DNA of 64,000 nucleotides from Candidatus Levybacteria bacterium RIFCSPLOWO2_12_FULL_41_12 (GCA_001784155.1 MFPL01000007.1:10101-74100), one strand, 5' to 3'. Positions 11,172 to 42,187 are shown, numbered from the stretch's first letter. Translations and numbers: made by a program. The notes: generated by a model from the letters alone, not told the origin.

Positions 11172-11172
11172 A

Positions 11173-13331: not shown

Positions 13332-13381
13332 TTCGCTACATTATAGTTTATATGGTAAAATCAAAGCAAATCATCATCCCG

Positions 13382-24295: not shown

Positions 24296-25146
24296 TAAAA
24301 AATAATCTACCTTTAAGCCTGGAGTTAAAGGCAGCGGAAACAAGAGAAGAAATTTTAGAAATGATAGTAAGTGCCCGTGGAACCCACATTGCGAGTGCGT
24401 TTTCAATAGTAGATTTGGTGGTTTATTTATACAATCATGTTTTAAGAATAAATCCCAAAAAACCGAATGATCCTAAAAGAGATAAGTTTGTCTTAAGTAA
24501 AGGACATGGATGCGCAGCTTTGTATGTTGTTTTGGCAAATCTTGGCTTTTTTCCAAAGAGTGAGCTTGGGAAATACTGCACGAGAGAGGGTATTTTGGGT
24601 GGACACCCCGATAGCACAAGAATACCGGGGGTAGAAACCTCGACAGGTTCTTTGGGTCATGGTTTTCCTGTGGCCGTAGGATTTGCGTTGGCCAGTAAGA
24701 TTAACAAAAGTAATTCTAAGGTTTATTGTATAGTCGGTGATGGTGAATGCAATGAAGGGTCGGTTTGGGAAGCGGCACAGGTAGCTCCGCACCATAAGTT
24801 AGATAATCTAACTGTAATAGTTGATGACAACAAACTTATGATCTCAGGTTTCGCTAAGGATATTCTAAACCCTTTATCTTTAGCGGATAAATTCAGGATA
24901 TTTGGTTGGAATGTTATTGAAATCAATGGTCACAATTTTAAGGAAATAATAACTGCATTTAATGCCAAAACGAAAAATTCTAAGCCTACTGCCATAATCG
25001 CAAATACAATTAAAGGCAAAGGAGTGTCTTTTATGGAAAATGAAAAAGAATGGTACAGTAGACTTCCCAACGAAGAAGAGCTTAAGCTCGCGTTGGATGA
25101 GTTAGATACAAAAATCAAAAAGCTTAAGGGGAGGCTTAAGATATGA
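24292..25146 (+). CDS. Transketolase N-terminal-section subunit (TPP-binding)
   Basis: SKGHGCAALYVVLANLGFF, GHPD....GVETSTGSLGHGFPVAVGFA, VGDGECNEGSVWEA. Confidence 0.8.
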   Translation: MIKNNLPLSLELKAAETREEILEMIVSARGTHIASAFSIVDLVVYLYNHVLRINPKKPNDPKRDKFVLSKGHGCAALYVVLANLGFFPKSELGKYCTREGILGGHPDSTRIPGVETSTGSLGHGFPVAVGFALASKINKSNSKVYCIVGDGECNEGSVWEAAQVAPHHKLDNLTVIVDDNKLMISGFAKDILNPLSLADKFRIFGWNVIEINGHNFKEIITAFNAKTKNSKPTAIIANTIKGKGVSFMENEKEWYSRLPNEEELKLALDELDTKIKKLKGRLKI

Positions 25147-26093
25147 GAGATTCTTTCATAAGCTCGATATACAAAGTAACAAAAAAGGATAAAAATGTTT
25201 TATGTATTGTAGGAGATATTGGAGCATTTCTTCTAAGGAATTATATTAAAGATTTTCCAAACAATTATTTTAATTTGGGAGTCGCAGAGGCAAATATGGT
25301 CGGGGTTGCATCGGGACTTGCGATGTCTGGGAAAATTCCATTCGTTTACACCATTACCCCTTTTATTACGGCAAGGCCATACGAGCAAATTAAAGTAGAT
25401 GTATGCTATAACAACGCGAATGTAAAGCTTGTGGGTGTGGGGAGCGGTGCATCTTATGGGACGATGGGGTCAACCCACCATTCATTAGACGATTTAGCTC
25501 TAATGAGTACACTGCCCAATATGACGGTCATTTCTCCATCGGATCCTCTGGAGGTAGAAGAAGCAGTATTTGCCGCGGCAAAACACGTGGGACCCGTGTA
25601 TATAAGACTTACCTTAAAGTCTAAACCCTTAATTTATAAAAGGGAAGATTTTAAGATAGGAAAGGCAAGAGTAGTTAGAAACGGAAAAGATGTGGCAGTC
25701 ATTGCTACGGGGGATATGGTCGAAGTTGCCGTGGATGCTGCAAGCATCCTGGAAAAGGAAAATATAAGCTGTCAGATAATCAATATGCATACGATAAAGC
25801 CCATAGATGAACGACTTATTGGGGATTTGTCGAAAAAATATAAGGTAATAATTTCCATAGAAGAACATAGTGTTATGGGAGGGTTGGGCAGTGCAATATC
25901 TTCCGTTTTGGCACAAATTCCTGATAATAAAGCACTTTTTAAAGCAATGGGGTTTCGGGACGAGTTCGTGAAAATTTACGCTAGCGATAAACATGAGATA
26001 TTTAACGCTTATGGTTTATCGGAAAAACATTTAGCTAATGAAGTTCTCTCTTTGTACATGTATGCTAAGTCCAATAATACGAGAAGACATTAA
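25143..26093 (+). CDS. Transketolase C-terminal-section subunit (full length: Pyr and C-terminal domains)
   Basis: GVAEANMVGVASGLAMSGKIPFVYTITPFITARPYEQI. 316 aa with the C-terminal domain present. ATGA overlap with the N-subunit gene. Confidence 0.8.
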   Translation: MRDSFISSIYKVTKKDKNVLCIVGDIGAFLLRNYIKDFPNNYFNLGVAEANMVGVASGLAMSGKIPFVYTITPFITARPYEQIKVDVCYNNANVKLVGVGSGASYGTMGSTHHSLDDLALMSTLPNMTVISPSDPLEVEEAVFAAAKHVGPVYIRLTLKSKPLIYKREDFKIGKARVVRNGKDVAVIATGDMVEVAVDAASILEKENISCQIINMHTIKPIDERLIGDLSKKYKVIISIEEHSVMGGLGSAISSVLAQIPDNKALFKAMGFRDEFVKIYASDKHEIFNAYGLSEKHLANEVLSLYMYAKSNNTRRH

Positions 26094-27117
26094 AGACGTA
26101 GTTAATAGGCTGGGGAAAGATGCAGACCGCTTATCGGGTAAAACTGTTCTGATAACAGGAGCCTCAGGCTTAATTGGAGGATATTTAGTTGATACGCTAG
26201 TCTATCTTAATGAGAATAGATTGCTCAAGTCCTGTAAGGCAATAGCTCTTCAAAAAAGTAAAGTTAAAAAAAATAGTAGGTTGGGACATTTATTGAATAA
26301 CCGAAATGTTAAACTTGTTTCCCACGACGCGTCCGCTCCTTATAAAAGTAATCAGAAGATAGATTACGTTATTCACGCTGCAGGAGTGTCAGCACCTGCA
26401 GCTTTTCTAAAAGACCCCTTGGGCACTATAGATGTAAATGTGTCTGGCGTTCGATGGATTCTAGAATATGCGAGGAAAAATGAAGTAAAAAGCATTCTTT
26501 ATATGAGTAGTGGCGAAATCTATGGAAATCCAACCCTGGAGAATATACCCACCCCTGAAACCTATAAAGGGAATGTATCTACCCTTGATCCGCGTGGATG
26601 CTATACCTCTTCAAAAAGACTGGCAGAAACCCTCTGCAGTATTTATTTCGAAAAATATAATGTACCTGTAAAAATTGCTCGTCCATTTATTGTCTATGGA
26701 CCCGGCCTTCGGTTTGACGACAAAAGGGTTATGGCAGAATTTATTAAAAACGGGTTGGAAGGTAAGCCAATAGAAATGTTAAACGCAGGACGGGATACTC
26801 GCTCATACTGCTATGTATCCGATGCAACAGTCGCATTTTTTAAAATTCTCCTCTCGTCTAAGGACGGAGAACCATTTAATGTGGCATCTGATTTGGAAGA
26901 GGTGAGTATAAAAGAATTAGCGGAATTGGTTCATAAAATTTGCAATATAAAAAAGCCAGTTAGGGTAAAAAAGAAAGGAGCGAATTTCTTAAAAGACGCT
27001 CCGAACAGAGTCTTTCCGGACATTACCAAGCTCAAAAAAACATTCGGATATGTCCCTAAGGTAGGGATAGAGAAAGGCCTCCGAAGGACAATTGAATGGA
27101 ACAGGTCTGTAATTTGA
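26038..27117 (+). CDS. NAD-dependent sugar epimerase/dehydratase (SDR)
   Basis: GKTVLITGASGLIGGYLV. YTSSKRLAE catalytic YxxxK. The true start is probably an internal Met, because the annotated ORF overlaps the upstream gene by 56 nt. Confidence 0.7.
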   Translation: MKFSLCTCMLSPIIREDIKDVVNRLGKDADRLSGKTVLITGASGLIGGYLVDTLVYLNENRLLKSCKAIALQKSKVKKNSRLGHLLNNRNVKLVSHDASAPYKSNQKIDYVIHAAGVSAPAAFLKDPLGTIDVNVSGVRWILEYARKNEVKSILYMSSGEIYGNPTLENIPTPETYKGNVSTLDPRGCYTSSKRLAETLCSIYFEKYNVPVKIARPFIVYGPGLRFDDKRVMAEFIKNGLEGKPIEMLNAGRDTRSYCYVSDATVAFFKILLSSKDGEPFNVASDLEEVSIKELAELVHKICNIKKPVRVKKKGANFLKDAPNRVFPDITKLKKTFGYVPKVGIEKGLRRTIEWNRSVI

Positions 27118-27121
27118 AAAT

Positions 27122-27841
27122 ATGGATCTAAAACGCTTTGTACTCAAATATCTCGCTCCCCCTACAGAAACAGCGAGAAACGAATGGGTGGTTAAGAAGA
27201 TTGCTAAAATCCCCAAAGGTAAAAGCATTCTTGATGTTGGAGCTGGAGAAATGCCTTATAAGACATACTGCAGGCATCTCAAATATAAAAGTCAAGACTT
27301 TGGGAAGTACACAGGCGAAAATACAAAAAGTGGTATAAAAAGCGGAAAGTACGATACTAAAAGTGTGGATATTATTTCCGATATTACTTCTATACCAGTC
27401 AGAAATAAATCATTTGACTATGTGCTCTGCACAGAGGTTTTCGAGCACATACCCGATCCTCTTCAGGCATTAAAAGAAATAAGCAGGATAAATAAATCGA
27501 CACTTATACTGACTGCTCCGTTTGCCTCCTTAACACATTTTTATCCTTATTTTTTTTACACAGGGTTTTCAGAACAGTTCTATAGAACAAATCTTCCAAG
27601 ATACGGATATAAAATCAAGGAAATATATGCGTACGGAAATTACTTTGACTTATTGGGCATGGAGCTTTTGAGACTACCTCTCATCATCTTTGACTACAAC
27701 AAGATATTTTTGATTTGTATTCTTCCCTTTTTTACGTTGACATTACCAGTGCTTATGGCCTTGAGGATTCTGGGAAAACTTTATCCTCAGTCAAATAACA
27801 TTTTTTGCTTTGGGATATGTGTTTTAGCAAAAAAATACTAA
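27122..27841 (+). CDS. Class I SAM-dependent methyltransferase with hydrophobic C-terminus
   Basis: ILDVGAGEMPY motif I. VLCTEVFEHIPDP. C-terminal membrane-like helices. Confidence 0.65.
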   Translation: MDLKRFVLKYLAPPTETARNEWVVKKIAKIPKGKSILDVGAGEMPYKTYCRHLKYKSQDFGKYTGENTKSGIKSGKYDTKSVDIISDITSIPVRNKSFDYVLCTEVFEHIPDPLQALKEISRINKSTLILTAPFASLTHFYPYFFYTGFSEQFYRTNLPRYGYKIKEIYAYGNYFDLLGMELLRLPLIIFDYNKIFLICILPFFTLTLPVLMALRILGKLYPQSNNIFCFGICVLAKKY

Positions 27842-30034: not shown

Positions 30035-31606
30035 ATGGAAAAACAGCAAAATAAAAAGGTGGTAGTTATTTGTCTTGATGGTGCCAACTGGGATATTCTT
30101 AAACCTTGGGCAGAAAAAGGTTGGCTTCCTAATATTAATAGATTTTTAGAAAAAGGGACTTCAACTAACTTAATTACCACGCTTCCTCCCGTAACAGGGC
30201 CAGCATGGGTATCATTTGCGACAGGAAAAAATCCGGGCGCACATGGGTGTTACAACTTTGCAATTCCTACAGATAGCCTGCTAAACGTCGATCCTATAAG
30301 TACAGAAAAAATAAAAGGGAAAACGTTTTACGAAATACTGGAAAACGATGGAAAGAAGAGCATTCTTATAAACATGCCTTGTTCCTTCCCTCCAAGAATA
30401 AAAAAAGGAATTGTCCTTCCAAGTTTTCTTGCAGCTGACTCTTCGGATGTGTATCCCAGAAATATCGTTAACAAAGTACCAGAGATTAAAAATTATAGAG
30501 TGGTTACGGATTTTCTCAAACAAAGAATTGGGAAAGGGGAAGCTATGGCCAAAGATGCAAGGGAGCTTGAAGGAGACAAATTCCTAATTGCAAAAAAATT
30601 ATTTCTGAATTTTGAATGGGATTTTTTCTTTGTAATGTTTATGGCAACGGATTGGATCCAGCATAAGCGTTATAAATATTTGCTTTCCGGGAAGGATAAG
30701 AAGTCATCGGTATTTGTGCAGGCATATATTGATTTAGATAACTATATTGGATGGTTTTTAGACAATATTTCAAAAGACACAACTCTTATTCTAATTTCCG
30801 ACCATGGCTTTAAGTCTGTTTCCACATACTTTCATATAAATGTATGGTTGAGAGAAAATAGTTACCTTAAACAAAAACTTCCAAGGTTGCGTTTAAACTC
30901 ATCAATACCACTCACCCCGGACAGGATCATAAAGGGCGGGGGAAGAGTAAAGGGACTCTTTCCCAATATGGTACGCACTGGTTCTACGATTCTTATTAAT
31001 CATAATTCTTTATATCTCTTATCAGGGCATTTTGCACGGTTGATAACAAAATATATCCCGGTTGCCAAAAAAATTATACCATCTGAGTTTCTTAACGTAG
31101 GATATGAGATTGATCCACAAAATTCGGTAGCATACAGCATTTCGGGGGGAAACGTAACCGGAATTTATATAAATGACAAGGTAAGGTTTAAGGACGGACT
31201 GGTTTCAGAAGAAGAATACAATAATATTAGAAATGAAATAATTAAAAGTATGAAAAGCGCTCGTGATACAAATGGCAAAAAGATATTTAAGAATGTTTAT
31301 AAAAAAGAGAATATCTACTCCGGAGACCATCTTTTAATGGCGCCAGATATTCTTTATGAGGAAAGCGAGCACATTATCATAACAACCGTTTTATCAAGTA
31401 TAAAGTCAATCGAGAAAACTCCTGATGGCGGCTGGCACGATAGGAAAGGCATATTTGCTGCATATGGAGATAAAATTATTAGAGGTAAAACAATAAAGGA
31501 TATTTCAGTTTTAGATTTCGCGCCGACTATTCTGCATCTGTTTGGGAAAAACATTCCTCTCGATATGGAGGGAAGAATTCTCTTTGAGATATTTAAAAAT
31601 AAATGA
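30035..31606 (+). CDS. Alkaline-phosphatase-superfamily enzyme (type I phosphodiesterase/nucleotide pyrophosphatase-like), soluble
   Basis: VVVICLDGANWD.....G.LPN. TTLPPVTGPAWVSFATGKNPGAHG metal-site block. ISDHGF. No TM. Confidence 0.6.
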   Translation: MEKQQNKKVVVICLDGANWDILKPWAEKGWLPNINRFLEKGTSTNLITTLPPVTGPAWVSFATGKNPGAHGCYNFAIPTDSLLNVDPISTEKIKGKTFYEILENDGKKSILINMPCSFPPRIKKGIVLPSFLAADSSDVYPRNIVNKVPEIKNYRVVTDFLKQRIGKGEAMAKDARELEGDKFLIAKKLFLNFEWDFFFVMFMATDWIQHKRYKYLLSGKDKKSSVFVQAYIDLDNYIGWFLDNISKDTTLILISDHGFKSVSTYFHINVWLRENSYLKQKLPRLRLNSSIPLTPDRIIKGGGRVKGLFPNMVRTGSTILINHNSLYLLSGHFARLITKYIPVAKKIIPSEFLNVGYEIDPQNSVAYSISGGNVTGIYINDKVRFKDGLVSEEEYNNIRNEIIKSMKSARDTNGKKIFKNVYKKENIYSGDHLLMAPDILYEESEHIIITTVLSSIKSIEKTPDGGWHDRKGIFAAYGDKIIRGKTIKDISVLDFAPTILHLFGKNIPLDMEGRILFEIFKNK

Positions 31607-32481
31607 GAGACAACAGAAGGATTTTTTTATTTGACGTAAATCATACTCTTATAAATACAGCCTTATATCATACGCAAGCACTTGAAGTTCTCGAGAAAGG
31701 TTTAAAAAAACATACCGATGCTAAATCTGCTAGTTATATCACTGAAAGGTATGATGAGATATTCCTTCTAATGGTTGCTGGTTTCCTGCTCAAAACCGAT
31801 AAAGAATGGAAGGAAATTAGAGGTGGTAGGACTTCGTATCTTGAGCTTATGAAATTAATTACCAAGCATCAGGAAGAAGTGAAAAATAAGTGGGGATTTA
31901 TTAAAAAGTGGAGTAGGGAGGTTTTTCTTAAGATCGCGGCAGAAGAAATTGATGTAGACATTACCCCCCAAGCATTGTTTGAGCTAGGAACAGTTTACTG
32001 GGATACCATAACCCGATTAACAGAGCCCCTTGAGGAAGGCAAAAAACTTCTATCGCATCTGTATTCAAAAGGTTACCCTGTATATTTGTTAACAAGTAGC
32101 GATGGCAGGCTTACGTCAAACAACGGTTTTTTCGAGTATGATCCTAAGCTGTCCGGAAGTTATAAGAAAAATAGAATGAAGGCGCTTTCACTTAAGGGGC
32201 TAAAATTCCGGGATGTTATAGTAGGTGATCCCGAAGATAAGCCATTGCCTGGATACTATGAGCGTGCTATAAAAACCATAGAGAAGGATATGAAAAAAAA
32301 GATACATATTTCCTCATTTGTTATGATCGGTAACTCTTTTGAGGATGATCTCGAAACCCTTATGGAGATGAATGTTGGCACAGGTGTACTTTTCAAGAAG
32401 GGGTCAAGTCCTATGAAAAAAAAGAACGATATTTACAGAGTTGGGAACTTAATGGAAGTTGTAGACTTATTGAGTCTATAG
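31603..32481 (+). CDS. HAD-superfamily-like hydrolase (variant motif I DVN)
   Basis: FLFDVNHTL (motif I with Asn at the second Asp position). LLTSSDG (motif II). IGNSFEDD (motif IV-like). Confidence 0.4.
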   Translation: MRDNRRIFLFDVNHTLINTALYHTQALEVLEKGLKKHTDAKSASYITERYDEIFLLMVAGFLLKTDKEWKEIRGGRTSYLELMKLITKHQEEVKNKWGFIKKWSREVFLKIAAEEIDVDITPQALFELGTVYWDTITRLTEPLEEGKKLLSHLYSKGYPVYLLTSSDGRLTSNNGFFEYDPKLSGSYKKNRMKALSLKGLKFRDVIVGDPEDKPLPGYYERAIKTIEKDMKKKIHISSFVMIGNSFEDDLETLMEMNVGTGVLFKKGSSPMKKKNDIYRVGNLMEVVDLLSL

Positions 32482-32530
32482 CTTTGATGTTGAAATTTTT
32501 TCATAAAGTATATATAGTTTCGAGTATAAA

Positions 32531-33220
32531 TTGAAAATAATAAAACACACCGATCTTGCAGAAAAAATAAATGAAAGCGAGAATGTGCTTAGAAAAGCAT
32601 ATGAGAAGTACGGAGATAGGATAGCAATTTTCTGGACGGGTGGAAAAGACTCTACTGTATTACTACATATGATAAGGAATATCTTTGGAAATAAAAATAA
32701 GCTAAAAGTTCTCTTTTTGGACACACAACTTGATTTTGATGAAGTTTACGAGTTTATAGAAAGGATCAAAAAAGAGTGGAGAATAAATTTAATTACGGAA
32801 AAAACTACAGATAAGATGATGAAAAAATATAACTCTTTGAAAACGAAAAAGGAGAGGGTAGAGCTGGCAAGTATTTTTAAAATAATTCTTCTTAAGGAAG
32901 CCGTAAAAAAGCAGAAACTACCAGCTCTAGCAATAGGGATAAGGTGGGATGAGCATCCCGAACGCGCTTCGGAGAAATACTTCTCTCCCAGAGAAGGCCA
33001 TGTGAGGGTTCATCCGCTCCTTCATTTTACAGAAGAAGATATCTGGAAATACATAAAAAAGTTCCGTCTTCCTTATATTTCTTTATATGATAAAGGATAC
33101 AGGTCTTTGGGAGAGAGAGAATTCACGAAGCCCTCAACTAGAAGTGGAGGAGAAAGGTCTGGAAGGCAAAAAGAAAGAGAAGTAATAATGAAGAGATTAA
33201 GAGACCTTGGTTATTTCTAA
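32531..33220 (+). CDS. PAPS-reductase-family PP-loop protein (adenine-nucleotide alpha-hydrolase fold)
   Basis: IAIFWTGGKDSTVLLHMI PP-loop. C-terminal ERSGRQKEREVIMKRLRDLGYF. Apparent TTG start. Confidence 0.55.
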   Translation: MKIIKHTDLAEKINESENVLRKAYEKYGDRIAIFWTGGKDSTVLLHMIRNIFGNKNKLKVLFLDTQLDFDEVYEFIERIKKEWRINLITEKTTDKMMKKYNSLKTKKERVELASIFKIILLKEAVKKQKLPALAIGIRWDEHPERASEKYFSPREGHVRVHPLLHFTEEDIWKYIKKFRLPYISLYDKGYRSLGEREFTKPSTRSGGERSGRQKEREVIMKRLRDLGYF

Positions 33221-34900
33221 GTGAGATATTTTATTTTCAGAAATTGGATTTATCTTCTGGTAATTTTTTTTACTACTTTATCCGTTTTTATCGATCTTCC
33301 CAAAACATTTTATCAGCAGGATGAATGGCAAACATTAGGCCATAATCTTGCTGGACCGTCAGGCTCAGCTCTTGGAGACATTAACCTGGTTCGGATCTTT
33401 TTTGGCGAAGGACGTCCCTTAAGTACGGTAATGTATTCCCTATTCTTAGGATATTTCAAATTTACCGTTTTTCCCTCGGCAATATTTGCGATTACCTTTC
33501 AAGCCCTAAACTCAATGCTTGTCTTTGTCCTGGTGAGCAAAATAACTAAGAATAAGCTCATTGCACTTCTTTCCGCATCATTTCTTATAGTAAATAGCGT
33601 CTCACATCAAGCAGTGACATGGGTTTCGGCGAATAGCACTTTACCCGCCGCGACGCTAATTCTAATTTCTCTTATAACTTATTTTAATTACTTAGATAAA
33701 AAAGAGAGGAAGTATTTCTATGTTAGCATTATCTCAGCCATTCTTTCGCTTTACTTCAAGGGTATTGGGCTATTCCTTTTTGTTCTCCTCCCACTATTAC
33801 CCTTCATTTATCAAAATAAATCCTTCACTAAGAAAAACTTATTGTTTATTTTGAAGGACAATCTGATGTTCCTCGTGTTTGGTTTTTTAATGTTTGCTGT
33901 TAGATTTATTTCAACCTTTTTTCGCACAGAAGAGGTTGCAGGTTATGCAAGCGGGGGGGGAAGTGGTTCTTTCATTTACGCAGTTTTCTTGCGAACAATT
34001 CTATATCCGCTAACTTCACTTTTTCAAATTTTTGTTCCGCCTCTGGATTTATATTCGATAACCCCTGCCATAACAAAGATGCAATATAAGTTCTTAGTAG
34101 GTTCTCCATTGGTTGATTTGGTAGCGCAAAGTATAGTAGCAGACATGATAGCTATCATGGGTTCAATATTGATTCTATTCTTTTCAATCTTAATGGTGCA
34201 TAGGTCTAAGGATAAAATTATTAGTAGGAATGTCCGGTTTGCAATTGTTTTTTTCTTCTTAAGCTTTCTGCCTTATGTTGCGCTCGATCGAGATAGTTCA
34301 TATCTTTCATCGCGGTATTTCTATGTAGGACTGATTCCTGCAGGTATTCTTTTTGGATATGCAGTTTATTTCTTTACCACATTTAATAAATATATTAAGT
34401 GGGTCACACTATTTTTGGTAACTGTTTATTTATTTCATCATGCGGCTATCGTAAGATCGGACATTAATCATCAAGTCAAGCTGGGAAATGAGCGCGTATC
34501 CGTCTTGAATGGGATCAAAACTCTTTATCCTAATCCTTCAGAGAATACAATCTTTTACGTGACAAGCGATAAAGCTTACTATGGTGAAGTGACAAATCCT
34601 TTTCAAAACGGGTTGGGATATGTTCTAGAAGCTTGGTATTACGATACAGGGAAAATTCCGAAAGAGTTCTTATCTGAAAATTTCCTGTGGGATTTGGGTG
34701 ATGAGGGGTATAAGAGAAGTAGGAATAAGGGATTTGGGTATTATCAGGATATTGATAAAATGATAAAGGATATGGAGAAGAATAATATAAAATCCGAAGA
34801 TGTTTGGGCGTACTTTATTAAAAGTAAAGAGTCAGAAATAGTTGATATAACTTTGGAAACAAGAGAAAGAATCTCTACGGTAAGCGCTATTCCTAAATGA
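33221..34900 (+). CDS. GT-C (PMT/GT39-like) polytopic membrane glycosyltransferase
   Basis: At least 10 hydrophobic helices. First-loop acidic motif QQDEWQTLGH (DE-type). GTG start. Contains a G8 homopolymer at 33953..33960. Confidence 0.55.
   Translation: MRYFIFRNWIYLLVIFFTTLSVFIDLPKTFYQQDEWQTLGHNLAGPSGSALGDINLVRIFFGEGRPLSTVMYSLFLGYFKFTVFPSAIFAITFQALNSMLVFVLVSKITKNKLIALLSASFLIVNSVSHQAVTWVSANSTLPAATLILISLITYFNYLDKKERKYFYVSIISAILSLYFKGIGLFLFVLLPLLPFIYQNKSFTKKNLLFILKDNLMFLVFGFLMFAVRFISTFFRTEEVAGYASGGGSGSFIYAVFLRTILYPLTSLFQIFVPPLDLYSITPAITKMQYKFLVGSPLVDLVAQSIVADMIAIMGSILILFFSILMVHRSKDKIISRNVRFAIVFFFLSFLPYVALDRDSSYLSSRYFYVGLIPAGILFGYAVYFFTTFNKYIKWVTLFLVTVYLFHHAAIVRSDINHQVKLGNERVSVLNGIKTLYPNPSENTIFYVTSDKAYYGEVTNPFQNGLGYVLEAWYYDTGKIPKEFLSENFLWDLGDEGYKRSRNKGFGYYQDIDKMIKDMEKNNIKSEDVWAYFIKSKESEIVDITLETRERISTVSAIPK
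33953..33960 (+). repeat. G8 homopolymeric tract inside the GT-C coding sequence (candidate slipped-strand phase-variation site)
   Basis: gcaagcGGGGGGGGaagtgg encodes ASGGGSGS. It is the longest G/C run in this ~33 % GC window. Confidence 0.5.
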
Positions 34901-37900
34901 ATTTTTTAAGAAAACACTGGGAAATATTGATCATCCTTTTTCTGGGTTTGACACCTCTTCTTTGGTATAAGGATCCAAATTCTCTTGCCTTAGGTCACGA
35001 TATGGGATTTCCAATCGATCCAATATCTTTCTTCAAAGACAGGACATTTTTGTGGACTGACCGCGTAGGACTTGGATGGGATCAGACTTTAGGTTCTGCA
35101 GCGATTCTAATACATGGATTTGAGGCAGCCGTAGCGAGCCTTGGTGTACCCATTTTCCTCGTTCAAAAGGTAGTGTTTATTTTCTGGTTCGTTCTGCCCG
35201 GTCTTGCGATGTATTATTTTGTTTCCACCATTCATAGGGAAAAAGATCAATGGTTTATAAGGTTAGCCGGAAGCCTATTTTACATGTTTAATCATTTTTT
35301 ACTTCAAGCCTGGTTCATAGCAGAAAGAACAAAAATATCTCTATTCATTGCTCTTCCAATTCTTCTAGCTTTAACCATTAGCATGATAGAGGGGAGAATC
35401 TCAAAAATTAAAGGTCTGGCGTTAATGTCTTTAGTTTTTTTCTTCTTCAACGGAGGGGGAGGATTACCCCTATATGGGGGACTACTTTTAACTCTCTTTA
35501 CTGCCTTTGCATTTTTTGGCCTTATACATTTAAGAAGAAACCCCAAAACAGGAGTAAAAAGACTAACAGGAATTGCTTTGGGAATTTTAGCAAGCTTTAT
35601 TCTTGCAAATTTCTATTGGGTTTTGCCATTGTTAGTAAGCGTTTTGTCATCTTATGGTCAAAGCTTGTCATCAATAGGTGGGATATCAGGAGTTATCGCT
35701 TGGTCATTTGAAATTAGCAAGTTCGCAAGCATATTGAATGTAATGAGGCTTCAGGGAATCCCTGATTGGTATGATAATCCCAGCCATCCATTTTCTGGCC
35801 TTTTCTTAAATAACCCATTTCTGATTTTGGTAAGCTTTCTTATACCGGTTGTTGTTTTCTCTTCGTTATTCCTGATTAAGAAAATCCCAGAGTACCGAAG
35901 ACATATAATCTTTTTTAACATACTGGCAGTTTTAGGAATAATCTTTACTGCAGGATCACATCCTCCTTTTGGAGCAATCTATAATTTATTCTTAACCTTT
36001 ATTCCCGGATTCGCTATATTTAGAACCCCTTTTTATAAATTTGCTCCGGCTGTTTGGTTTGCATACGCGTATCTTTTTGCTTTTTCTTTTTATTATTTAA
36101 CTCAAAACTTCAAAAGAATAAGGTCAGCTTTACGATTCTTGGTATTGCCGTTAATCCTTATTTACAGTTTTCCCTTTTTTACCGGAAGTTTTTTTAACTG
36201 GAAAGAACCGTTTTCCACAATGACAAATTTACCATCGTATGTGTTAGATTTTTCCGAATATGCTAATTCAAATTTCTCTTTTAACGATAGAGTTTTAACC
36301 TTTCCTAACCAGAATCTGGGATGGAATAGCGCAATTTATAAATGGGGATATTGGAGTACTGCACCAATCGAGAGCCTCTTGACGAACAAATCGATAGTCT
36401 CAAACGATAGGGTTATGACAGATCCAGAAAAAAAACTCACAGAATTGATATATGACTCGATTTTGAACCGAACAGACGAGTGGAAAAAATCAGTAAACAT
36501 TTTGGGCATAAACTATTTTCTCTTACATAACGATTTTTATTATGATGCACCAAAATTCGAAACAGAAGACCCTAGGGTGTATAGAGAAAGATTTTTAGAA
36601 CTGGGCTTTGAAAAAAAAGAAGTTTTTGGAGAGTGGGAGCTTTATAAAATTCCGGGCCTTAGTCTCAAAAGTAAATTATATATTGATAACGATGCAATTG
36701 GCATATATAACAATGAAAATGTTTTAGAAAATCAATATTTTGGCATAGAAAATGTTCTTGATTTGCCCTTAGACGATGACCCGTTTGTTATAAATTCTCC
36801 AGATACATCAGATAATTTAAAAACTACAATTTTTTTAGAAAATTGTTTGTTCTGCGATAAGGAACAAAAAGAAACACCCATTTTTCTACCAAGAACAAGA
36901 ATTCTTCCAGGCTCTATTCTTTACCCTTTAGTTAAACGTAAAGAAAATAGTCAAAGAAATAAATTAACGAAAAATATTAACTCTAAATTAGATTTTCACC
37001 TTGGGACAACTCTCAAGAGACTGGCTGAAATTAAACATTTGATTGATCTGGGTGCGGATGAGAATAAAACAAACGGTGCTGTTAATGAGCTAAAAAAGGA
37101 ATTGATACTCCTGCAAGATTCAGTTAACAAAATGGATAAGAGCAGAGGAGACATGAGGCTTCTAGTACTAAGAATAGATAATTTCTTAAGAGAGGAGAAT
37201 AGAATCCTAGCTGATATTTCCAACGACGCAAATGCCTCTACGGGAGATAAATTAATAGACGTTAGATCGTTTATATCCCTAGCAACCCAAGAAAACAGGA
37301 AATATGAATCTTTATATCCGGAAAATACTGAAAAACGTTATCACTTCACAATAGATAAAAAAGGAGGTTATGAAATTCTTGTCAGAAAAGATGAATTTAA
37401 GCCGGATTTAGTAGTTGAAAAGGCAGTAGTTGATAATAAAGGACTTCCGTTAAAAACTTTTAATAAAAACAGCCACTATTATTCATTCGGAGTGAACGTT
37501 TTTAGTAAGGGCTTTCATGAAATAAGTCTATTCTTAAAAAATCCGGATAACTTACTTAGTAAAGGAAATGATGATGATTTAAACTTCGATGTTAATCCTC
37601 TACAGCCGGATTGCAGAGTGTTTAGAATAGAACCCCTTTCCAGTAGAATTTACATTCTTAACTTTGATTACTTAACGGAAAGATCCGTAGGAGCTGATAA
37701 TGGACCATTTGTTAAAATAGAACAAGTACTTCAAGACGATGTAAGGGATGAGGATTTTCAACTTAAGGCAAATAGCATCTTTCAAACATTTGATTATAAA
37801 ATAGCAACTGAGAAAAACGTTCAGTTGGTTAAGGTTTCTATATGTGCTTCTTCAGGTTATGAAAATTCTTCAAATATTCATATTGAAAATTTATCCCTCA

Positions 37901-38271
37901 GACCATTCCAGACGCCTGCGCTAGCTCTTATATCTTCAGACAACAAACCGACAATAAATGATAACAAAATCTCGGTAACGCAAATAAACCCAACAAAATA
38001 TGAAGTAAGAGTAAATGCAAATAGTCCTTATATTCTTGTACTTAATAACAAATTTAACTCTAATTGGAAAACTTCGGATAAAGATGTGAATACCAAGCAT
38101 TTTATGGTAAATGGTTTTGCTAATGCTTGGAATATTTCCAAAACGGGCGAATACACGTTAATTGTCGAATATAGCTCGCAGAAGTATTTTTATTTCGGTT
38201 GGTTCATAACGATAGCATTTATGATAACAATGTTTACTTATCTAATCTATGCAATTTATAAACATAAATAG
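34897..38271 (+). CDS. Very large (1124 aa) polytopic membrane protein, GT-C/AftD-like, with a ~650 aa extracytoplasmic domain and a C-terminal TM anchor
   Basis: About 450 aa of TM helices at the N-terminus (GHDMGFP loop). Long hydrophilic region. Final helix FGWFITIAFMITMFTYLIYAIY. Paralogous N-terminal region to 38586..40505. Confidence 0.5.
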   Translation: MNFLRKHWEILIILFLGLTPLLWYKDPNSLALGHDMGFPIDPISFFKDRTFLWTDRVGLGWDQTLGSAAILIHGFEAAVASLGVPIFLVQKVVFIFWFVLPGLAMYYFVSTIHREKDQWFIRLAGSLFYMFNHFLLQAWFIAERTKISLFIALPILLALTISMIEGRISKIKGLALMSLVFFFFNGGGGLPLYGGLLLTLFTAFAFFGLIHLRRNPKTGVKRLTGIALGILASFILANFYWVLPLLVSVLSSYGQSLSSIGGISGVIAWSFEISKFASILNVMRLQGIPDWYDNPSHPFSGLFLNNPFLILVSFLIPVVVFSSLFLIKKIPEYRRHIIFFNILAVLGIIFTAGSHPPFGAIYNLFLTFIPGFAIFRTPFYKFAPAVWFAYAYLFAFSFYYLTQNFKRIRSALRFLVLPLILIYSFPFFTGSFFNWKEPFSTMTNLPSYVLDFSEYANSNFSFNDRVLTFPNQNLGWNSAIYKWGYWSTAPIESLLTNKSIVSNDRVMTDPEKKLTELIYDSILNRTDEWKKSVNILGINYFLLHNDFYYDAPKFETEDPRVYRERFLELGFEKKEVFGEWELYKIPGLSLKSKLYIDNDAIGIYNNENVLENQYFGIENVLDLPLDDDPFVINSPDTSDNLKTTIFLENCLFCDKEQKETPIFLPRTRILPGSILYPLVKRKENSQRNKLTKNINSKLDFHLGTTLKRLAEIKHLIDLGADENKTNGAVNELKKELILLQDSVNKMDKSRGDMRLLVLRIDNFLREENRILADISNDANASTGDKLIDVRSFISLATQENRKYESLYPENTEKRYHFTIDKKGGYEILVRKDEFKPDLVVEKAVVDNKGLPLKTFNKNSHYYSFGVNVFSKGFHEISLFLKNPDNLLSKGNDDDLNFDVNPLQPDCRVFRIEPLSSRIYILNFDYLTERSVGADNGPFVKIEQVLQDDVRDEDFQLKANSIFQTFDYKIATEKNVQLVKVSICASSGYENSSNIHIENLSLRPFQTPALALISSDNKPTINDNKISVTQINPTKYEVRVNANSPYILVLNNKFNSNWKTSDKDVNTKHFMVNGFANAWNISKTGEYTLIVEYSSQKYFYFGWFITIAFMITMFTYLIYAIYKHK

Positions 38272-38599
38272 GATAAAAGAATACTTTTATAAAAGACAAA
38301 ATAGAATTTTGGTAATTCTATCATTAAGCGTGCTATTTTTAGTAGTTAAGGAAATACCATTCTTAAATATTTTTTTTCCCGATAACGCTGCTTTTGGAGT
38401 TGCGCTCATTTCCATTTTAATTTTATTTAAACTTTATAAAAATACAATCTTCATCATTTTTTTAGCATTTTTCAGCTTTATTCTATATATAACAGAAGTA
38501 GTTAACCATGCAGATCAGCTAGCAGTTCTAATATTAGTATGTTTAACGGTGTATATGCTAGAAGAGGCTACAGTTTTTTTAAGAAATGAAATTTCCTAG
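38249..38599 (+). CDS. Small hydrophobic membrane protein (3-4 TM)
   Basis: 116 aa, mostly hydrophobic helices. Overlaps its neighbours by about 20 nt on each side. Could be a real small subunit or a spurious ORF. Confidence 0.35.
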   Translation: MQFININRIKEYFYKRQNRILVILSLSVLFLVVKEIPFLNIFFPDNAAFGVALISILILFKLYKNTIFIIFLAFFSFILYITEVVNHADQLAVLILVCLTVYMLEEATVFLRNEIS

Positions 38600-40505
38600 A
38601 AAATTAGAATATATACTTTTATTCTTTTTTGCTTTTCTCATTTACAGATTTTTCCTATCAACAGATCCTTTAGTTGCAAACGACTGGCCGCTTCTTTTTA
38701 GAGAGTCTAGAACCTTTTCGCCGTTCTGGGCGATGGCGTGGGACTATATGGGGAACGGCGGTATCGGCGGGCCGGCATTTAAAACAATCTGGATCGATCT
38801 TTACGCCAATTTTGTCTATTCGATAACAAACTTTACAAACATGCCCTGGTGGTTATCTCAAAGAGTTTTCTGGATAGTGCCTTTTATCTCTCTATCTCTT
38901 GCCTCTTCTTATGTGTTTGCCTCCTATCTCTTAAGAGACCGATTGCTTAAAATTGCTTCAGTTTTAATTTATAGCTTCAACACCTATATCCTCATGATTT
39001 TGGGTGGGGGACAATTTGGCGTAGCCTTTTCTTACGCATTGGCTCCTTTGGCTTTGTTTGCTTTTTTTAAACTTTTAGATAGACCAACGGTACTGAATGT
39101 TCTCGTTTCAGGACTGGCTTCAGGAATACTTATAGCTTTGGATCCAAGAGTTGCGTCTCTTATCTTTCTTGTCGGATTTTTCTGGTTCGTCTTTTTTGGC
39201 AGAAAATTTACCAAGGTAAAAATAAAAGCCGTTGTTTCGAGCCTTATAATAGTTGGCGCTTTAAACCTTTACTGGATTTTGCCAATCTTAATGTCGAAGG
39301 GGTCTTTATCGGGATTCTCAAATTACGCGTCATTAGCAGGGGTGAAGTTTCTTAGCTTTGCTACGCTTTCGGATAGCATTTCACTTCTTCACCCTAACTG
39401 GCCTGAAAACATTTTTGGTAAAATATATTTTTTTAAGCCTGAATTTCTGATTCTACCGATTCTTGCCTTTGCCACCCTTCTTTTAAAACCTAAGAAGGAA
39501 ATACTTTTTTTTCTCGGACTATCCATCTTCTCCGTTTTTTTAGCAAAAGGAGCAAGTGATCCCTTTGGCCAAGCTTACCTATTCCTTTTCGATAACGTTC
39601 CCGGCTTTAGTCTATTTAGAGACTCGACTAAATTCTATGTTTTAACTGCGCTTTCCTTCAGCATTTTAATTCCTTATTTCATTGAGAACTTACCTTCCAG
39701 GTTTAAGCATTTGACTGCAGGAGTCTTTATAGTTCTTTTTTTGTTCATTCTAAGGCCTGCATGGAGTGGAGAGCTTACCGGTATTTTTAGGCCTCAACCA
39801 ATACCCACGGATTATCTTCTTTTAAAAACCGAGCTAAGTCAGGATAAAGATTTTTACAGAATTATGTGGCTTCCCCAAAGACAGAAGTATGGATACTTCG
39901 ATCCCAATCATCCTACAATATCCGCGCAGGATTTTTTCAAAACAACCAATCATTCTCAAATTCTTAAGAATTTGAGAATGAAGGATGTACAAAAATTACT
40001 TGAAGAATCTTCGGTCAAATACATTATTGTTCCTACGGATTCAAACGGAGAGATTTTTCTTAAGGATAGAAAATACGATCCGCTGCAATATAAGAAAACC
40101 GTTGATTTTTTAGATAAAATGGTCTGGTTTAAGAGGGCTCAGGGATTTGGTAATTTAGCAGTTTATCAAACGAGAGGCTACAGAGGTCACTTCTTTATTC
40201 CATCCGGCGGAGAAGTACAGGGGAAATTCATAAATCCTACGGAATATAGCATCAGAACCGATACCTTACAGCCGGGAGATTTAGTTGTTTTCTCGGAAGC
40301 CTATGACCAGGGGTGGAAAATGGGCGGGGTTACTGCCACGCCTTACAAATCAAGACTTAACAGTTTTTTTGTGCAAGATATTGAAGATATTAAAGTATTC
40401 TATAGCCCGCAGTTATGGGTGGGGAGGGGGCTTCTTTTAAGCTTTGCTACGGCAGTTGGTGTTGTTAGCCTCATGGTATTTGGTAGATTACGCCGAAAAT
40501 GGTAA
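38586..40505 (+). CDS. Polytopic membrane protein, GT-C-like. Paralog of the N-terminal half of 34897..38271
   Basis: Aligned motifs with the neighbouring giant protein (ILANFYWVLPLL vs ALNLYWILPIL; GIPDWYDNPSHPF vs LLHPNWPENIF). C-terminal TM anchor. Confidence 0.5.
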   Translation: MKFPRKLEYILLFFFAFLIYRFFLSTDPLVANDWPLLFRESRTFSPFWAMAWDYMGNGGIGGPAFKTIWIDLYANFVYSITNFTNMPWWLSQRVFWIVPFISLSLASSYVFASYLLRDRLLKIASVLIYSFNTYILMILGGGQFGVAFSYALAPLALFAFFKLLDRPTVLNVLVSGLASGILIALDPRVASLIFLVGFFWFVFFGRKFTKVKIKAVVSSLIIVGALNLYWILPILMSKGSLSGFSNYASLAGVKFLSFATLSDSISLLHPNWPENIFGKIYFFKPEFLILPILAFATLLLKPKKEILFFLGLSIFSVFLAKGASDPFGQAYLFLFDNVPGFSLFRDSTKFYVLTALSFSILIPYFIENLPSRFKHLTAGVFIVLFLFILRPAWSGELTGIFRPQPIPTDYLLLKTELSQDKDFYRIMWLPQRQKYGYFDPNHPTISAQDFFKTTNHSQILKNLRMKDVQKLLEESSVKYIIVPTDSNGEIFLKDRKYDPLQYKKTVDFLDKMVWFKRAQGFGNLAVYQTRGYRGHFFIPSGGEVQGKFINPTEYSIRTDTLQPGDLVVFSEAYDQGWKMGGVTATPYKSRLNSFFVQDIEDIKVFYSPQLWVGRGLLLSFATAVGVVSLMVFGRLRRKW

Positions 40506-41662: not shown

Positions 41663-42187
41663 ATGAAAATCGGGATTGATATAAGCCAGCTGGCTTTTGA
41701 AAGAACTGGTGTTGCAAACTATCTGAAGAAGTTAGTAGAAAGTCTGGCTTTGGTTGATAAGAAAAATGACTACATTCTCTTTTACTCTTCCCTGAGAAGG
41801 CCTGTGCCTGTGCTAGATATAAAAAACCCCAACTTTAAAATAAAAGCTTTTAAATTCCCTCCGACTTTTCTTGAGAGACTCTGGAATAAGTTCCACCTTT
41901 TTCCGATCGAAAACTTCATAGGAGACGTGGATGTTTTTATCACTTCAGATTGGGTAGAACCGCCTGCCAAGAATGCTAAAAAAGTAACAATACTCTATGA
42001 CTTAATTGCGTATAAATATCCCGCAGAGACTCATCCAAGAATTGTCGAGGTTCAAAAAAGAAAAATAAGCTGGGCAAAAAACGAAACCGATAAATTTTTT
42101 GCAATATCGCAGTCAGCAAAAAGTGATGCCATCGATATTTTGGGAATAGATAAATCAAAAATCGAAGTAATATACCCTGGAATTTAA
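41663..42187 (+). pseudogene. GT4 glycosyltransferase N-terminal-domain fragment (174 aa, ends at the inter-domain YPGI)
   Basis: MKIGIDISQLAFERTGVANYLKKL resembles the N-termini of the full GT4s at 53231 and 42621. The ORF stops exactly at the YPG hinge where the C-terminal Rossmann domain should begin. The next gene is a four-helix-bundle protein. Confidence 0.5.

Follow-up and report, generated by a model that had tools for sequence, protein, structure and literature searches.

Three consecutive genes that do not encode glycosyltransferases lie among the glycan genes of a CPR/Patescibacteria-like genome, and the question they raise is whether they act together to place a non-carbohydrate substituent on the glycan, and which substituent this might be. 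The initial annotation regarded all three as one candidate module and left sulfate, phosphate and nucleotidyl groups as options for activation or transfer.

Three genes within a glycan cluster

The window is the whole stretch of DNA that was analysed (64 kb). A Pfam scan of all 56 of its ORFs with 150 aa or more shows a single glycan cluster (~56 kb) from position 1 to about 57,000, with GT2, GT4, GT10-like, PMT_2, Bac_transf, NDP-sugar enzymes and numerous SAM methyltransferases. For a 559-aa membrane protein, a PDB sequence search gave nothing useful. The three ORFs at 30035-33220 exist as they had been described, and the domain calls hold, with the PF00702 match falling below threshold:

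30035..31606, + strand: predicted AP-superfamily enzyme, NPP-like and soluble, 523 aa (PF01663, E=6e-37)
31603..32481, + strand: divergent HAD-like protein, 292 aa (PF00702, E=4.9e-5; TIGR02253, 8e-10)
32531..33220, + strand: Cys-free PP-loop protein of the CysD/CysH (PAPS_reduct) family, 229 aa, TTG start (PF01507, E=4e-39)

The HAD-like ORF overlaps the AP ORF by 4 bp. A sequence check of the three proteins found no hydrophobic segment in any of them, which agrees with the earlier description of the AP protein as soluble. Domains of Sat, CysC, CysN and canonical sulfotransferases are absent from all 56 window ORFs in the Pfam scan, and no sulfate transporter was found within the 64 kb. Six-frame searches of the window with the PAPS synthase of locus L051 and the five sulfotransferases of locus L093 also gave no match, the sulfotransferase probes being limited in sensitivity (they missed an annotated sulfotransferase at L089). 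Therefore, if the glycan is sulfated, the AP and PP-loop proteins must be the ones that act.

The AP protein scores 128.4 bits against PF01663 (Phosphodiest; gathering score 23) over residues 9-284. The best PDB folds for its AF2 model (pLDDT 88) are ENPP1, a bacterial NPP, PafA and PhnA, at 12-16% identity. The block TGPAWVSFATGKNPGAHG, which had been quoted as the metal-site block, is present at residues 54-71 and aligns with the Thr nucleophile block of PhnA, Thr54 being the predicted nucleophile. The predicted metal ligands (D15, D206/H210, D256/H257 and H468) make up a complete two-metal set, and D15, T54, D206, H210, D256, H257 and H468 are invariant or near-invariant across 25 AP homologs. 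On these residues, the protein is a predicted NPP-like enzyme with a Thr nucleophile and an intact metal site. A reading of the AP partners as S1 formylglycine sulfatases was rejected: the C/S-x-P-x-R motif is lacking, the window protein reads PPVTGPAW, and in each of the three AP subfamilies the partners have T or S and no CxPxR (Y-T-T-S-A-H-A-S in the sulfatase-fold type).

The HAD-like protein scores 24.2 bits against PF00702, slightly under the gathering cut-off of 26.4, and a sequence search found no PDB relative at E<=1. Motifs II (LLTS) and IV (GNSFEDD) are present. Motif I reads FDVNHT, so that, as had been noted, it is a D-V-N motif, with Asn in place of the second Asp of D-x-D-x-T.

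The PP-loop protein is well above the cut-off for PF01507 (PAPS_reduct; 134.9 bits, gathering score 22.5), and among characterised families it is closest to CysD, APS reductase and PAPS reductase. Its best NCBIfam match is the CysD subfamily PRK05253 (125.5 bits, cut-off 195). The other CysD models (TIGR02039, 87.8 vs 396.6; PRK12563, 84.8 vs 413) and the CysH/APR models (PRK02090, 109.4 vs 154; TIGR00434, 107.7 vs 165; TIGR02055, 80.1 vs 235) are likewise below their cut-offs, and no FAD-synthase model is among the matches. Tested as a tRNA-modifying PP-loop enzyme (TilS/TtcA), the protein gave marginal matches far below cut-off, and this identity was rejected. The best PDB sequence matches are CysD (1zun) and APS reductase (2goy). 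The AF2 model (pLDDT 88) has a TM of 0.76-0.80 to APS/PAPS reductases and a Foldseek probability of 1.00 to 2goy, 4bwv, 2oq2, 8ron and 1zun; in fold and sequence, the similarity to FMN adenylyltransferase is about equal to that for CysD or CysH.

The TTG at 32531, annotated earlier as the start, is the sole workable one, the next in-frame Met being residue 47, past the PP-loop; the N-termini of homologs align to the TTG. The quoted WTGGKDS is part of an intact ATP-type PP-loop (WTGGKDST), of which G37, G38, K39 and D40 are at least 95% conserved in 82 sequences, as are K117, R138/D140/E141 and E208-R209-x-G211-R212. The C-terminal tail, ...LRxLGY[FW], is found in all 81 homologs and contains no Cys. 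A comparison of CysH-type Cys motifs with CysD-like motifs, proposed in the initial annotation, thus has a clear outcome, namely, no cysteine at all, an ATP-type PP-loop and a CysD-like C-terminus. SLGEREFT stands where SIGCEPCT would be, and L112, A113, E195 and F198 occupy the [4Fe-4S] ligand positions of APS reductase (CC...CxxC). Because the protein has no cysteine, it cannot be a CysH-type reductase, an identity that was rejected also on the missing ECGLH tail. Another 44 members of the family are without any cysteine, and 28 of the 81 relatives (non-CPR bacteria and DPANN archaea) have C, C, C and C at the Fe-S positions.

Conservation of the AP and PP-loop genes

A census of 81 distinct PP-loop homologs from many phyla was used to examine linkage. 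The AP domain is fused to the PP-loop homolog in 10 of these; an AP gene lies <=300 bp away in 44, <=3 kb away in 7 more and 3-10 kb away in 3. AP genes represent 34% of immediate neighbours compared with 3.0% of the other genes at the same loci, an odds ratio of 16.6, although the counted loci are related to each other and the p-values of this enrichment overstate their independence. Fusions were confirmed by Pfam in Desulfovirgula thermocuniculi, a Bathyarchaeia MAG and others, and one homolog 40% identical to the window AP protein is itself fused to PAPS_reduct (P0130). Among the best 150 clusters from a library of 1.8 billion proteins, the AP domain is N-terminal and the PP-loop domain C-terminal in 28 of 40 long representatives. 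The family of the two, often fused, extends to about 500 species-level genomes and 200 protein clusters at E<=1e-30; a search of plasmids found only a distant subfamily in Desulfolutivibrio, together with ordinary CysD/NodP and CysH. The fusions and the 16-fold enrichment exclude a chance adjacency. The initial annotation would have been contradicted by unrelated housekeeping proteins with no conserved linkage, and the opposite is observed: AP and PP-loop genes are linked across genomes.

The HAD-like gene does not share this linkage. It accompanies the pair only in the window and its closest relative (2/81 loci), and its homolog is confined to L001 and L009, where it is directly 3' of the PP-loop gene. 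Therefore, of the proposed three-gene module, the AP and PP-loop association stands very firmly and the HAD-like gene does not belong to it. The AP and PP-loop genes, and not the trio, are the conserved unit and may encode the two parts of a single two-component enzyme; the HAD-like gene is a lineage-specific accessory outside this pair. A literature search on PAPS reductase with alkaline phosphatase, Patescibacteria or glycan returned nothing on the pair.

Members of the pair differ in their arrangement. An AP gene is missing from the vicinity in 12 of 28 Fe-S-type PP-loop members and in 5 of 53 Cys-less members, while 14 Fe-S-type members are fused or adjacent to AP. At several loci, two to three different AP genes accompany a single PP-loop gene.

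Sulfate as the candidate substituent

The placement among glycan genes that had been described for the window recurs across phyla, where the pair is found in glycan-assembly loci. Next in frequency among the neighbours of PP-loop homologs come GT2 and GT4; Fe-S-type loci contain many genes for GT4, Wzz/Wzc, Wzx, Wza-like proteins and sugar nucleotides, and a glycan context is seen also at L001-L004, L008, L090 and L092-L094. In ten loci, a complete PUA-ATP-sulfurylase-APS-kinase gene (PAPS synthase) with intact catalytic motifs abuts the PP-loop gene, the remaining neighbours being unrelated housekeeping genes. AP homologs occur beside a stand-alone APS kinase and Wzm/Wzt at L091, and an AP homolog lies among five canonical sulfotransferases at the AP-only locus L093; the PP-loop loci are without canonical sulfotransferases. 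The glycan loci L090, L092 and L094 have AP-family members and show no sulfate gene. None of the neighbourhood censuses contained a sulfite reductase.

Four independent links to sulfation are thus available: the abutting PAPS synthase (10 loci), the APS kinase near AP, the sulfotransferases near AP, and the Fe-S cysteines of non-CPR relatives. Because relatives adjoin PAPS synthase, APS kinase and canonical sulfotransferases, sulfation is now favoured among the three options first put forward, and the phospho- and nucleotidyl options are less so. We consider a connection of the pair with sulfation of some kind to be somewhat better than an even prospect. The pair most likely represents a non-canonical, sulfonucleotide-linked module of glycan sulfation and probably adds or supports the sulfate decoration of a cell-surface glycan. 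Haloferax Agl7 is reported to be needed for the sulfation of a DolP-hexose.

The mechanism that we propose is that the pair acts on a nucleotide of the adenosine-5'-phosphosulfate type and serves O-sulfation of the glycan made by the surrounding cluster. The PP-loop protein would be a short, CysN-independent, CysD-like enzyme in which the intact GGKDS loop binds ATP and on which APS is formed or held (ATP + sulfate -> APS + PPi); being without cysteine, it could not reduce the sulfonucleotide. The NPP-like AP partner, with its putative metal-activated Thr54, would take over the unstable nucleotide anhydride at once, which would explain why the two are so frequently fused. It would then hand the sulfuryl group to a sugar hydroxyl and thereby pull the unfavourable activation step forward, and the HAD-like gene between the two would serve as an accessory in this lineage. 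The presence of two to three AP genes per PP-loop gene fits acceptor-specific transferases. This exact division of labour, in which the PP-loop protein makes or holds APS and AP transfers the sulfuryl group, is tentative and falls a little short of even. That AP constitutes a new class of sulfotransferase, in which a metal-activated Thr/Ser takes the sulfuryl group straight from APS that a CysN-independent, CysD-like subunit generates in situ, is a bolder proposal that we regard as doubtful.

Several observations run counter to these assignments. An APS-making PP-loop protein would be redundant in the ten loci that carry a full PAPS synthase. At L093, an extra sulfotransferase is not obviously needed amid the canonical ones, and the window has no sulfate-activation partner (CysC, Sat). 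Moreover, the AP-superfamily enzymes with a Thr nucleophile (NPP, EptA and LtaS) are known as phosphoryl transferases and not as sulfuryl transferases, which counts against the proposed mechanism.

The roles of the two proteins could also be swapped. The Cys-free PP-loop protein would then be an APS/PAPS-dependent sulfotransferase of a new kind, with an acceptor hydroxyl replacing the lost Cys at a CysH/APR site, and AP would be a CysQ-like hydrolase of PAP, AMP or PPi. Such a swap would turn AP, the PP-loop protein and PAPS synthase into a complete and non-redundant pathway, and it would explain AP homologs beside an APS kinase and amid five sulfotransferases, which also release PAP. It is consistent with the fold similarity to APS/PAPS reductases, with the absence of canonical sulfotransferases from PP-loop loci when five are present at the AP-only locus, and with the Fe-S-type and Cys-less split of the relatives, which mirrors that of APS and PAPS reductases; the Fe-S-type members, APS-like and with AMP as by-product, are also the ones that more often lack a nearby AP. 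However, the invariant GGKDST is of the ATP-using type (CysD, FMNAT) and is lost in all characterised APS/PAPS reductases, the 14 Fe-S-type members fused or adjacent to AP do not fit, several different AP genes per locus would be odd for a by-product hydrolase, and the AP fold is nearest to diesterases (NPP) and not to monoesterases. We consider the swap unlikely. A reading based on phosphate is, in our estimate, improbable to a greater degree. According to it, the PP-loop protein is an FMNAT-like adenylyltransferase that uses ATP and a phosphate monoester to build an ADP-linked head group, and AP moves the phospho-head group to the glycan through phospho-Thr, in the manner of EptA and LtaS, whose donors are lipids. 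In its favour, the FAD synthases of human and yeast belong to the best matches by sequence and fold (8ron, 1.4e-14), and the PP-loop is an intact one of the ATP type. AP enzymes with a Thr nucleophile are classic transferases of phospho-groups, the substrates of NPPs, which the AP fold resembles, are nucleotide pyrophosphates, and in the window a HAD-like protein and methyltransferases lie alongside. This reading nevertheless leaves unexplained both the repeated, independent closeness to PAPS synthase, APS kinase and sulfotransferases and the APS-reductase-type Fe-S cysteines; NCBIfam scores favour CysD and CysH over any FAD synthase, and no gene for phospho-head-group synthesis was recognised next to the pair.

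Two further explanations place the pair outside glycan decoration. Membership of the PAPS_reduct family and the adjacency to PAPS synthase outside glycan loci in ten genomes would suit an unconventional role in assimilation: the pair would reduce or otherwise process PAPS/APS to supply the cell with sulfur, and would lie in glycan clusters only incidentally. We find this scarcely plausible, as the window protein and 44 other members have no Cys, no member has a C-terminal catalytic Cys, sulfite reductase is missing from every neighbourhood census, and the majority of loci are glycan clusters. In BREX type 4, a PAPS-reductase domain (BrxP) occurs with the AP-superfamily protein PglZ, and this parallel in domain pairs raises the idea of a pair for defence or DNA modification. 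The AP proteins match Phosphodiest/Sulfatase and not PglZ, no BrxC- or BrxL-like genes occur in the window or any inspected locus, and the neighbours are glycan genes or PAPS synthase, so that such a role, or an unrelated chance neighbourhood, appears the least credible of all.

To our knowledge, biological sulfation always relies either on PAPS with P-loop sulfotransferases or on aryl-sulfate transferases, and the envelopes of Patescibacteria are essentially uncharacterised. If glycan sulfation by the pair is correct, it would represent either a novel route for the sulfation of glycans or a novel means of driving sulfate activation and clearing up after it, and a first functional handle on the decoration of patescibacterial surface glycans; it would also give a role to a large family labelled only "predicted AlkP superfamily phosphohydrolase/phosphomutase". 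If AP proved to be the sulfotransferase, glycans could be sulfated without free PAPS or a P-loop sulfotransferase. Patescibacteria, sulfate reducers and DPANN/Bathyarchaeia archaea would have this chemistry in common, and it could account for the sulfotransferases that are missing for the surface glycans of archaea and CPR. The question is directly testable, because the cultured Desulfovirgula thermocuniculi DSM 16036 carries the fusion as a 773-aa protein.

Comparison with known systems

The PP-loop protein resembles CysD of the CysDN ATP sulfurylase in its best NCBIfam and PDB sequence matches, its true PP-loop (S/T-G-G-K-D-S), its IRxDE and ERxGR motifs and its C-terminus (...LRxLGY[FWM]), and close relatives are fused to a CysN-like GTPase (P0276) or to APS kinase. 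It differs in its length (229 aa compared with about 300) and the lack of the CysD insertion, in the absence of CysN (no GTP_EFTU domain in the 56 window ORFs), in having an AP-superfamily enzyme and not a GTPase as its conserved partner, and in the APS-reductase-type Fe-S cysteines of many relatives, which CysD does not have. With CysH/APR it shares the fold, Lys117 and E208-R209-x-G211-R212, which align with K144 and E241-R242-x-G244-R245 of PaAPR, and the CC...CxxC positions kept in 28/81 relatives; however, no pair member has the catalytic Cys of ECGLH, and the ATP-binding PP-loop has been lost by the reductases. The FAD synthases (human FLAD1 and yeast Fad1) have the PAPS_reduct fold and a GGKD PP-loop and are top fold matches. 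In human FLAD1, one chain combines the FAD-synthase domain with a hydrolase domain that acts on the same nucleotide, which in concept resembles the fusion of AP with the PP-loop domain, although that partner is a molybdopterin-binding-like domain, and here the similarity is in fold and sequence only, the neighbourhood pointing to sulfate and not to flavin.

The AP protein has in common with NPP/ENPP and PhnA the AP-superfamily core, the two-metal ligands, a Thr nucleophile in a ...T-x-P-x-x-x-S-x-x-T-G block and the best fold matches. At 12-16% identity it is distant from them, cytoplasmic, without signal peptide or TM, and carries an additional helical insert (about 100 residues, at about 285-355); we know of no conserved partnership of NPPs with a PP-loop enzyme. 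In EptA/MCR-1, LtaS and OpgB, a metal-activated Thr takes a charged head group covalently and passes it to a hydroxyl of a glycan or lipid, which by analogy is the mode of action proposed for the window protein. Those enzymes are membrane-anchored, periplasm-facing members of the Sulfatase family that transfer phospho-groups from lipid donors, whereas the window AP is soluble and its donor is presumably a nucleotide. Finally, members of the pair share their metabolic surroundings with canonical sulfation (Sat/CysDN, CysC, P-loop sulfotransferase and CysQ), as PAPS synthase, APS kinase and sulfotransferases occur next to them. In the window, where Sat, CysC, CysN and the canonical sulfotransferase are all missing, the pair would take over at least one of these steps with proteins of other folds.

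The three genes and the surrounding glycan cluster

The initial annotation described three consecutive genes embedded among glycan genes, and their coordinates and strand agree exactly with the open reading frames that we recovered.

Genes of the locus
30035-31606, +, ORF 1 (AP), alkaline-phosphatase-superfamily protein, 523 aa; PF01663 Phosphodiest, 6e-37
31603-32481, +, ORF 2 (HAD-like), 292 aa; 4-bp overlap with ORF 1
32531-33220, +, ORF 3 (PP-loop), 229 aa; TTG start; PF01507 PAPS_reduct, 4e-39
33221-34900, +, multi-pass membrane protein, 559 aa; GTG start directly adjoining the PP-loop stop codon, no gap

The domain calls were upheld by Pfam and NCBIfam, with ORF 2 only weakly HAD-like (PF00702 4.9e-5, slightly below the gathering score; TIGR02253 8e-10), and the motifs cited for these proteins are present in the ORF sequences. 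The AP protein had been described as soluble, and ORF 1, like ORF 2 and ORF 3, contains no hydrophobic segment. The PP-loop gene can start only at the TTG: the N-termini of homologs align to it, and the first in-frame Met downstream is already past the PP-loop. A promoter-like sequence (32490-32518, +; TTGAAA-17-TATAGT, a consensus match only) ends 12 nt upstream of this TTG and suggests that the PP-loop gene may be transcribed from an internal promoter into an almost leaderless mRNA.

The 56 window ORFs of 150 aa or more were all scanned with Pfam. One continuous glycan-assembly cluster extends from position 1 to approximately 57 kb and encodes GT2, GT4, a GT10-like enzyme, PMT_2, Bac_transf, NDP-sugar enzymes and many methyltransferases; housekeeping genes lie beyond it. 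The GC content of the window is 34-43%, and DUF5667 and DUF4012 proteins are encoded, which, together with the named sources of the closest homologs, suggests a Patescibacteria (Microgenomates-like) genome.

Other features of the glycan cluster
3990-6476 and 13316-15979, +, 828- and 887-aa proteins with F5/8 type C (discoidin, sugar-binding) as the sole recognisable domain
23267-24295, +, GT10-like glycosyltransferase (fucosyltransferase C-terminal domain, 8e-15), with its GT2 neighbour conserved in the closest relative (L001)
24292-27841, +, and 10416-13331, -, a cassette present twice: transketolase-like enzyme split into separate N-half and C-half genes, NAD-dependent epimerase/dehydratase, SAM methyltransferase
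41663-42187, +, orphan 174-aa ORF with the N-terminal Glyco_transf_4 half only, followed after a ~430-bp gap by a complete GT4 gene (42621-43745)
33221-38271, 38586-40505 and 45214-48402, +, very large membrane proteins (559, 1124, 639 and 1062 aa) with no or minimal Pfam matches; a 1184-aa counterpart in the homologous locus L002 matches GT-C_AftD

The duplicated cassette looks like a route to a sugar that is C-branched or extended by two carbons, and the 174-aa ORF is probably a gene remnant.

Conservation of the AP and PP-loop pair

The three genes had been proposed to form one module. The linkage of the AP and PP-loop genes stands, and the HAD-like gene falls outside it: its homolog occurs solely in L001/L009, the closest relative of the window locus, where it lies 3′ of a PP-loop gene whose product is 76% identical. 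The HAD-like gene is a lineage-specific accessory.

PP-loop homologs number 771 in a large protein database (E<=1e-10) and 507 species-level loci in the GTDB representative genomes. Their carriers include Patescibacteria, Desulfobacterota, Bacillota (the cultured Desulfovirgula thermocuniculi), Nitrospirota, Actinomycetota and Bipolaricaulota among bacteria, and Altiarchaeales, Bathyarchaeia and Aenigmatarchaeota among archaea. The initial annotation asked for a check of neighbourhood conservation across related genomes, and for the pair such conservation was observed: an AP-superfamily gene is beside or near the PP-loop gene in many phyla and in all seven neighbourhoods sampled at 76-46% identity, even where the other neighbours are rho or nucleotide-salvage genes. 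In 88 loci, analysed with ORFs from our own simple caller and iterated HMMs, 81 distinct PP-loop genes were found.

Nearest AP gene to each PP-loop gene
Fused to an AP domain: 10/81
Within 300 bp: 44/81
Within 3 kb: 7/81
At 3-10 kb: 3/81
No AP gene, both flanks at least 3 kb: 10/81
No AP gene, short flank: 7/81

AP genes constitute 34% of the immediate neighbours of the PP-loop gene versus 3.0% of all other genes of these loci, an odds ratio of 16.6; the 81 loci are phylogenetically related and hence not independent samples, so the accompanying p-value is no true probability. Distinct PP-loop clades have their own typical AP arrangement, divergent upstream, co-directional downstream or fused. 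According to Pfam, the fusions comprise Sulfatase/Phosphodiest, DUF4214 and PAPS_reduct in Desulfovirgula (L046:8342-10663, 773 aa), Phosphodiest and PAPS_reduct in a Bathyarchaeia MAG, and Sulfatase, SGSH_C and PAPS_reduct in a second MAG. The family profile was also run exhaustively as an HMM against 1.84 billion cluster representatives and matched 200 clusters at E<=1e-30. The best 150 of these include 40 long proteins, and in 28 of them the AP domain is N-terminal to the PP-loop domain. One AP-PP-loop fusion (P0130) is 40% identical to the AP protein of the window itself. These fusions and the adjacency demonstrate that the AP and PP-loop proteins are functionally coupled, and chance adjacency of their genes is unlikely.

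Two side observations concern the homologs. A PAPS_reduct-family representative (P0361, 674 aa) is split by an intein (Intein_splicing and LAGLIDADG_3). Loci L009, L011, L013, L015, L016 and others derive from MAGs titled 'uncultured Gammaproteobacteria bacterium', resemble CPR in gene content and are almost the same as Patescibacteria loci; these titles look like placeholder taxonomy.

Identity of the two proteins

The AF2 model of the AP protein (pLDDT 88) has ENPP1, a bacterial NPP, ENPP6, PafA and PhnA as its closest folds, at only 12-16% identity, and profile-to-PDB sequence searches gave a best value of only 3e-8. The PhnA/NPP nucleophile aligns with Thr54, conservation extends to the ligands of the two metals (D15, D206/H210, D256/H257 and H468), and the NPP-like catalytic site is complete. 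The protein is a PF01663/NPP-type member of the AP superfamily in an uncharacterised subfamily, for which the JGI label is only "predicted AlkP superfamily phosphohydrolase/phosphomutase". The AP partners of PP-loop proteins fall into three subfamilies, namely the window type (Thr), a ~680-aa type (Ser) and a sulfatase-fold type (Thr, with His replacing the sulfatase Arg). The CxPxR formylglycine motif is absent from all three.

The PP-loop protein is about equally similar to CysD, APS/PAPS reductases (TM 0.76-0.80 against its model) and eukaryotic-type FAD synthase (8ron, 1.4e-14); CysD is the best NCBIfam match (125 bits, cut-off 195), and 1zun is the best PDB sequence match. A CysH/APR-type reductase mechanism requires a C-terminal catalytic Cys. 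The window protein contains zero cysteines, with SLGEREFT at the place of SIGCEPCT in the P. aeruginosa APS reductase (PaAPR), and this mechanism is therefore excluded for it. On the question of CysH-type cysteines versus CysD-like motifs raised by the initial annotation, three features lean to CysD: an ATP-type PP-loop (GGKDST) that is invariant in the family, the C-terminal tail (...ERSGR...M..LR.LGYF), and the fusion of close relatives to a CysN-like GTPase (P0276, whose short form lacks the CysD insertion) or to APS kinase (P0367 and P0378).

The ATP-type loop is retained in CysD and FMN adenylyltransferase (FMNAT) too, whereas the characterised reductases have lost it. In addition, K117 and E208-R209-x-G211-R212, which are at least 95% conserved across the family, align with K144 and E241-R242-x-G244-R245 of PaAPR, residues that reportedly contact phosphosulfate according to the 2GOY paper. 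The ATP-type loop and the phosphosulfate-site residues are under strong constraint. Score, length and partner set the protein apart from CysD, the catalytic Cys and score from CysH/APR, and the absent Fe-S ligands from APS reductase; its sole membership is in the broad PAPS_reduct fold.

Sulfate and glycan associations and the proposed role

In ten Levybacteria-like loci (L037, L041, L043, L045, L048, L051, L054, L060, L072 and L079; e.g. L051:7900-12325), the PP-loop gene has a divergent ~680-aa Ser-type AP gene on one side and, only 1-4 bp away on the other, a convergent PUA_2-ATP-sulfurylase-APS-kinase gene with intact QTRNPxHxAH, P-loop and LDGDxxR motifs. These genomes are otherwise without sulfur assimilation context. 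As only unrelated housekeeping genes surround them, the AP, PP-loop and PAPS synthase genes form a self-contained unit. Two further links to sulfate come from protein families: relatives of the PP-loop protein carry the Fe-S signature of APS reductases, and all of the nearest characterised families but FMNAT act on sulfonucleotides. Reverse look-ups from homologs of the window AP protein gave the following neighbourhoods.

Neighbourhoods of window-AP homologs
L090: AP tandem pair among glycan genes; sulfate genes not apparent
L091: AP tandem pair; stand-alone APS kinase, Wzm/Wzt exporter
L092: 509-aa AP and weak 321-aa AP-like gene among glycan genes; sulfate genes not apparent
L093:1279-10643: one AP; five canonical sulfotransferases (PF00685/PF13469), GT2/GT4 genes, Wzx
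L094: AP tandem pair among glycan genes; sulfate genes not apparent

The metagenome-derived L093 is presumably a heavily sulfated polysaccharide cluster. After AP, the commonest PP-loop neighbours are GT2 (21/81 loci) and GT4 (18/81 loci), followed by ABC-2/ABC exporters, Bac_transf and Wzx. Both the pair and the AP family are found repeatedly in glycan loci and next to genes for sulfate activation or sulfotransfer. Within the window, Sat, CysC, CysN and canonical sulfotransferases were not found, with sulfotransferase probes that are insensitive to other families of these enzymes; because the window is only part of the contig, genes for sulfate activation may be located elsewhere in the genome.

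On the basis of sequence, fold and gene context, we infer that the pair serves glycan O-sulfation. In the division of labour that we prefer, the PP-loop subunit would form or hold APS from ATP and sulfate, and the AP subunit would take the role that CysN or CysC has for CysD, consuming the unstable product at once, with its metal-activated Thr transferring the sulfuryl group to the glycan. Two to three different AP genes per PP-loop gene are frequent, which fits acceptor-specific transferases. We rate the pair as a sulfation or sulfate-activation module made from non-canonical parts, with a small but real chance that it hides categorically new sulfotransferase chemistry. No description of the AP/PP-loop pairing, of the fusion or of the family function was found in the literature.

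The main rival swaps the roles, such that the PP-loop protein would be a PAPS/APS-using sulfotransferase and AP a PAP/AMP/PPi-clearing enzyme. This arrangement accounts better for the PAPS-synthase loci and L093, and it fits the commoner absence of a nearby AP gene in Fe-S-type members (12/28), which carry the APS-reductase ligand cysteines, than in Cys-less members (5/53); however, it conflicts with the invariant ATP-type PP-loop, and we consider it unlikely. Phosphate chemistry, with an FMNAT-like adenylyltransferase and a phospho-head-group transferase, leaves the repeated sulfate associations without explanation and appears to us less probable still. Assimilatory reduction by the pair and a BREX-like defence role are also unlikely readings of genes that so often accompany glycan assembly.

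The PP-loop family has two subtypes. Cysteines occupy exactly the four APS-reductase [4Fe-4S] ligand positions (CC...CxxC) in 28 of the 81 members, from non-CPR bacteria and DPANN archaea, and the cluster cysteines are lost in 53, namely all CPR members and one Bathyarchaeia member; 45 of these 53, the window protein among them, have no cysteine whatever. A tail cysteine is absent from both subtypes among the 81 members. Among the Pfam domains of 15 Fe-S-type loci in other phyla, GT4, methyltransferases and GDP-mannose dehydratase/epimerases dominated, together with Wzz/GNVR/AAA_31 (Wzc-like), Wzx and SLBB (Wza-like), and PP-loop genes without an AP neighbour are adjoined by Wzy_C-TPR proteins (Bipolaricaulota) or Wzx. 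The division of the family into Fe-S-type and Cys-less members parallels the known one of APS reductases, which bear the cluster, versus PAPS reductases, which do not.
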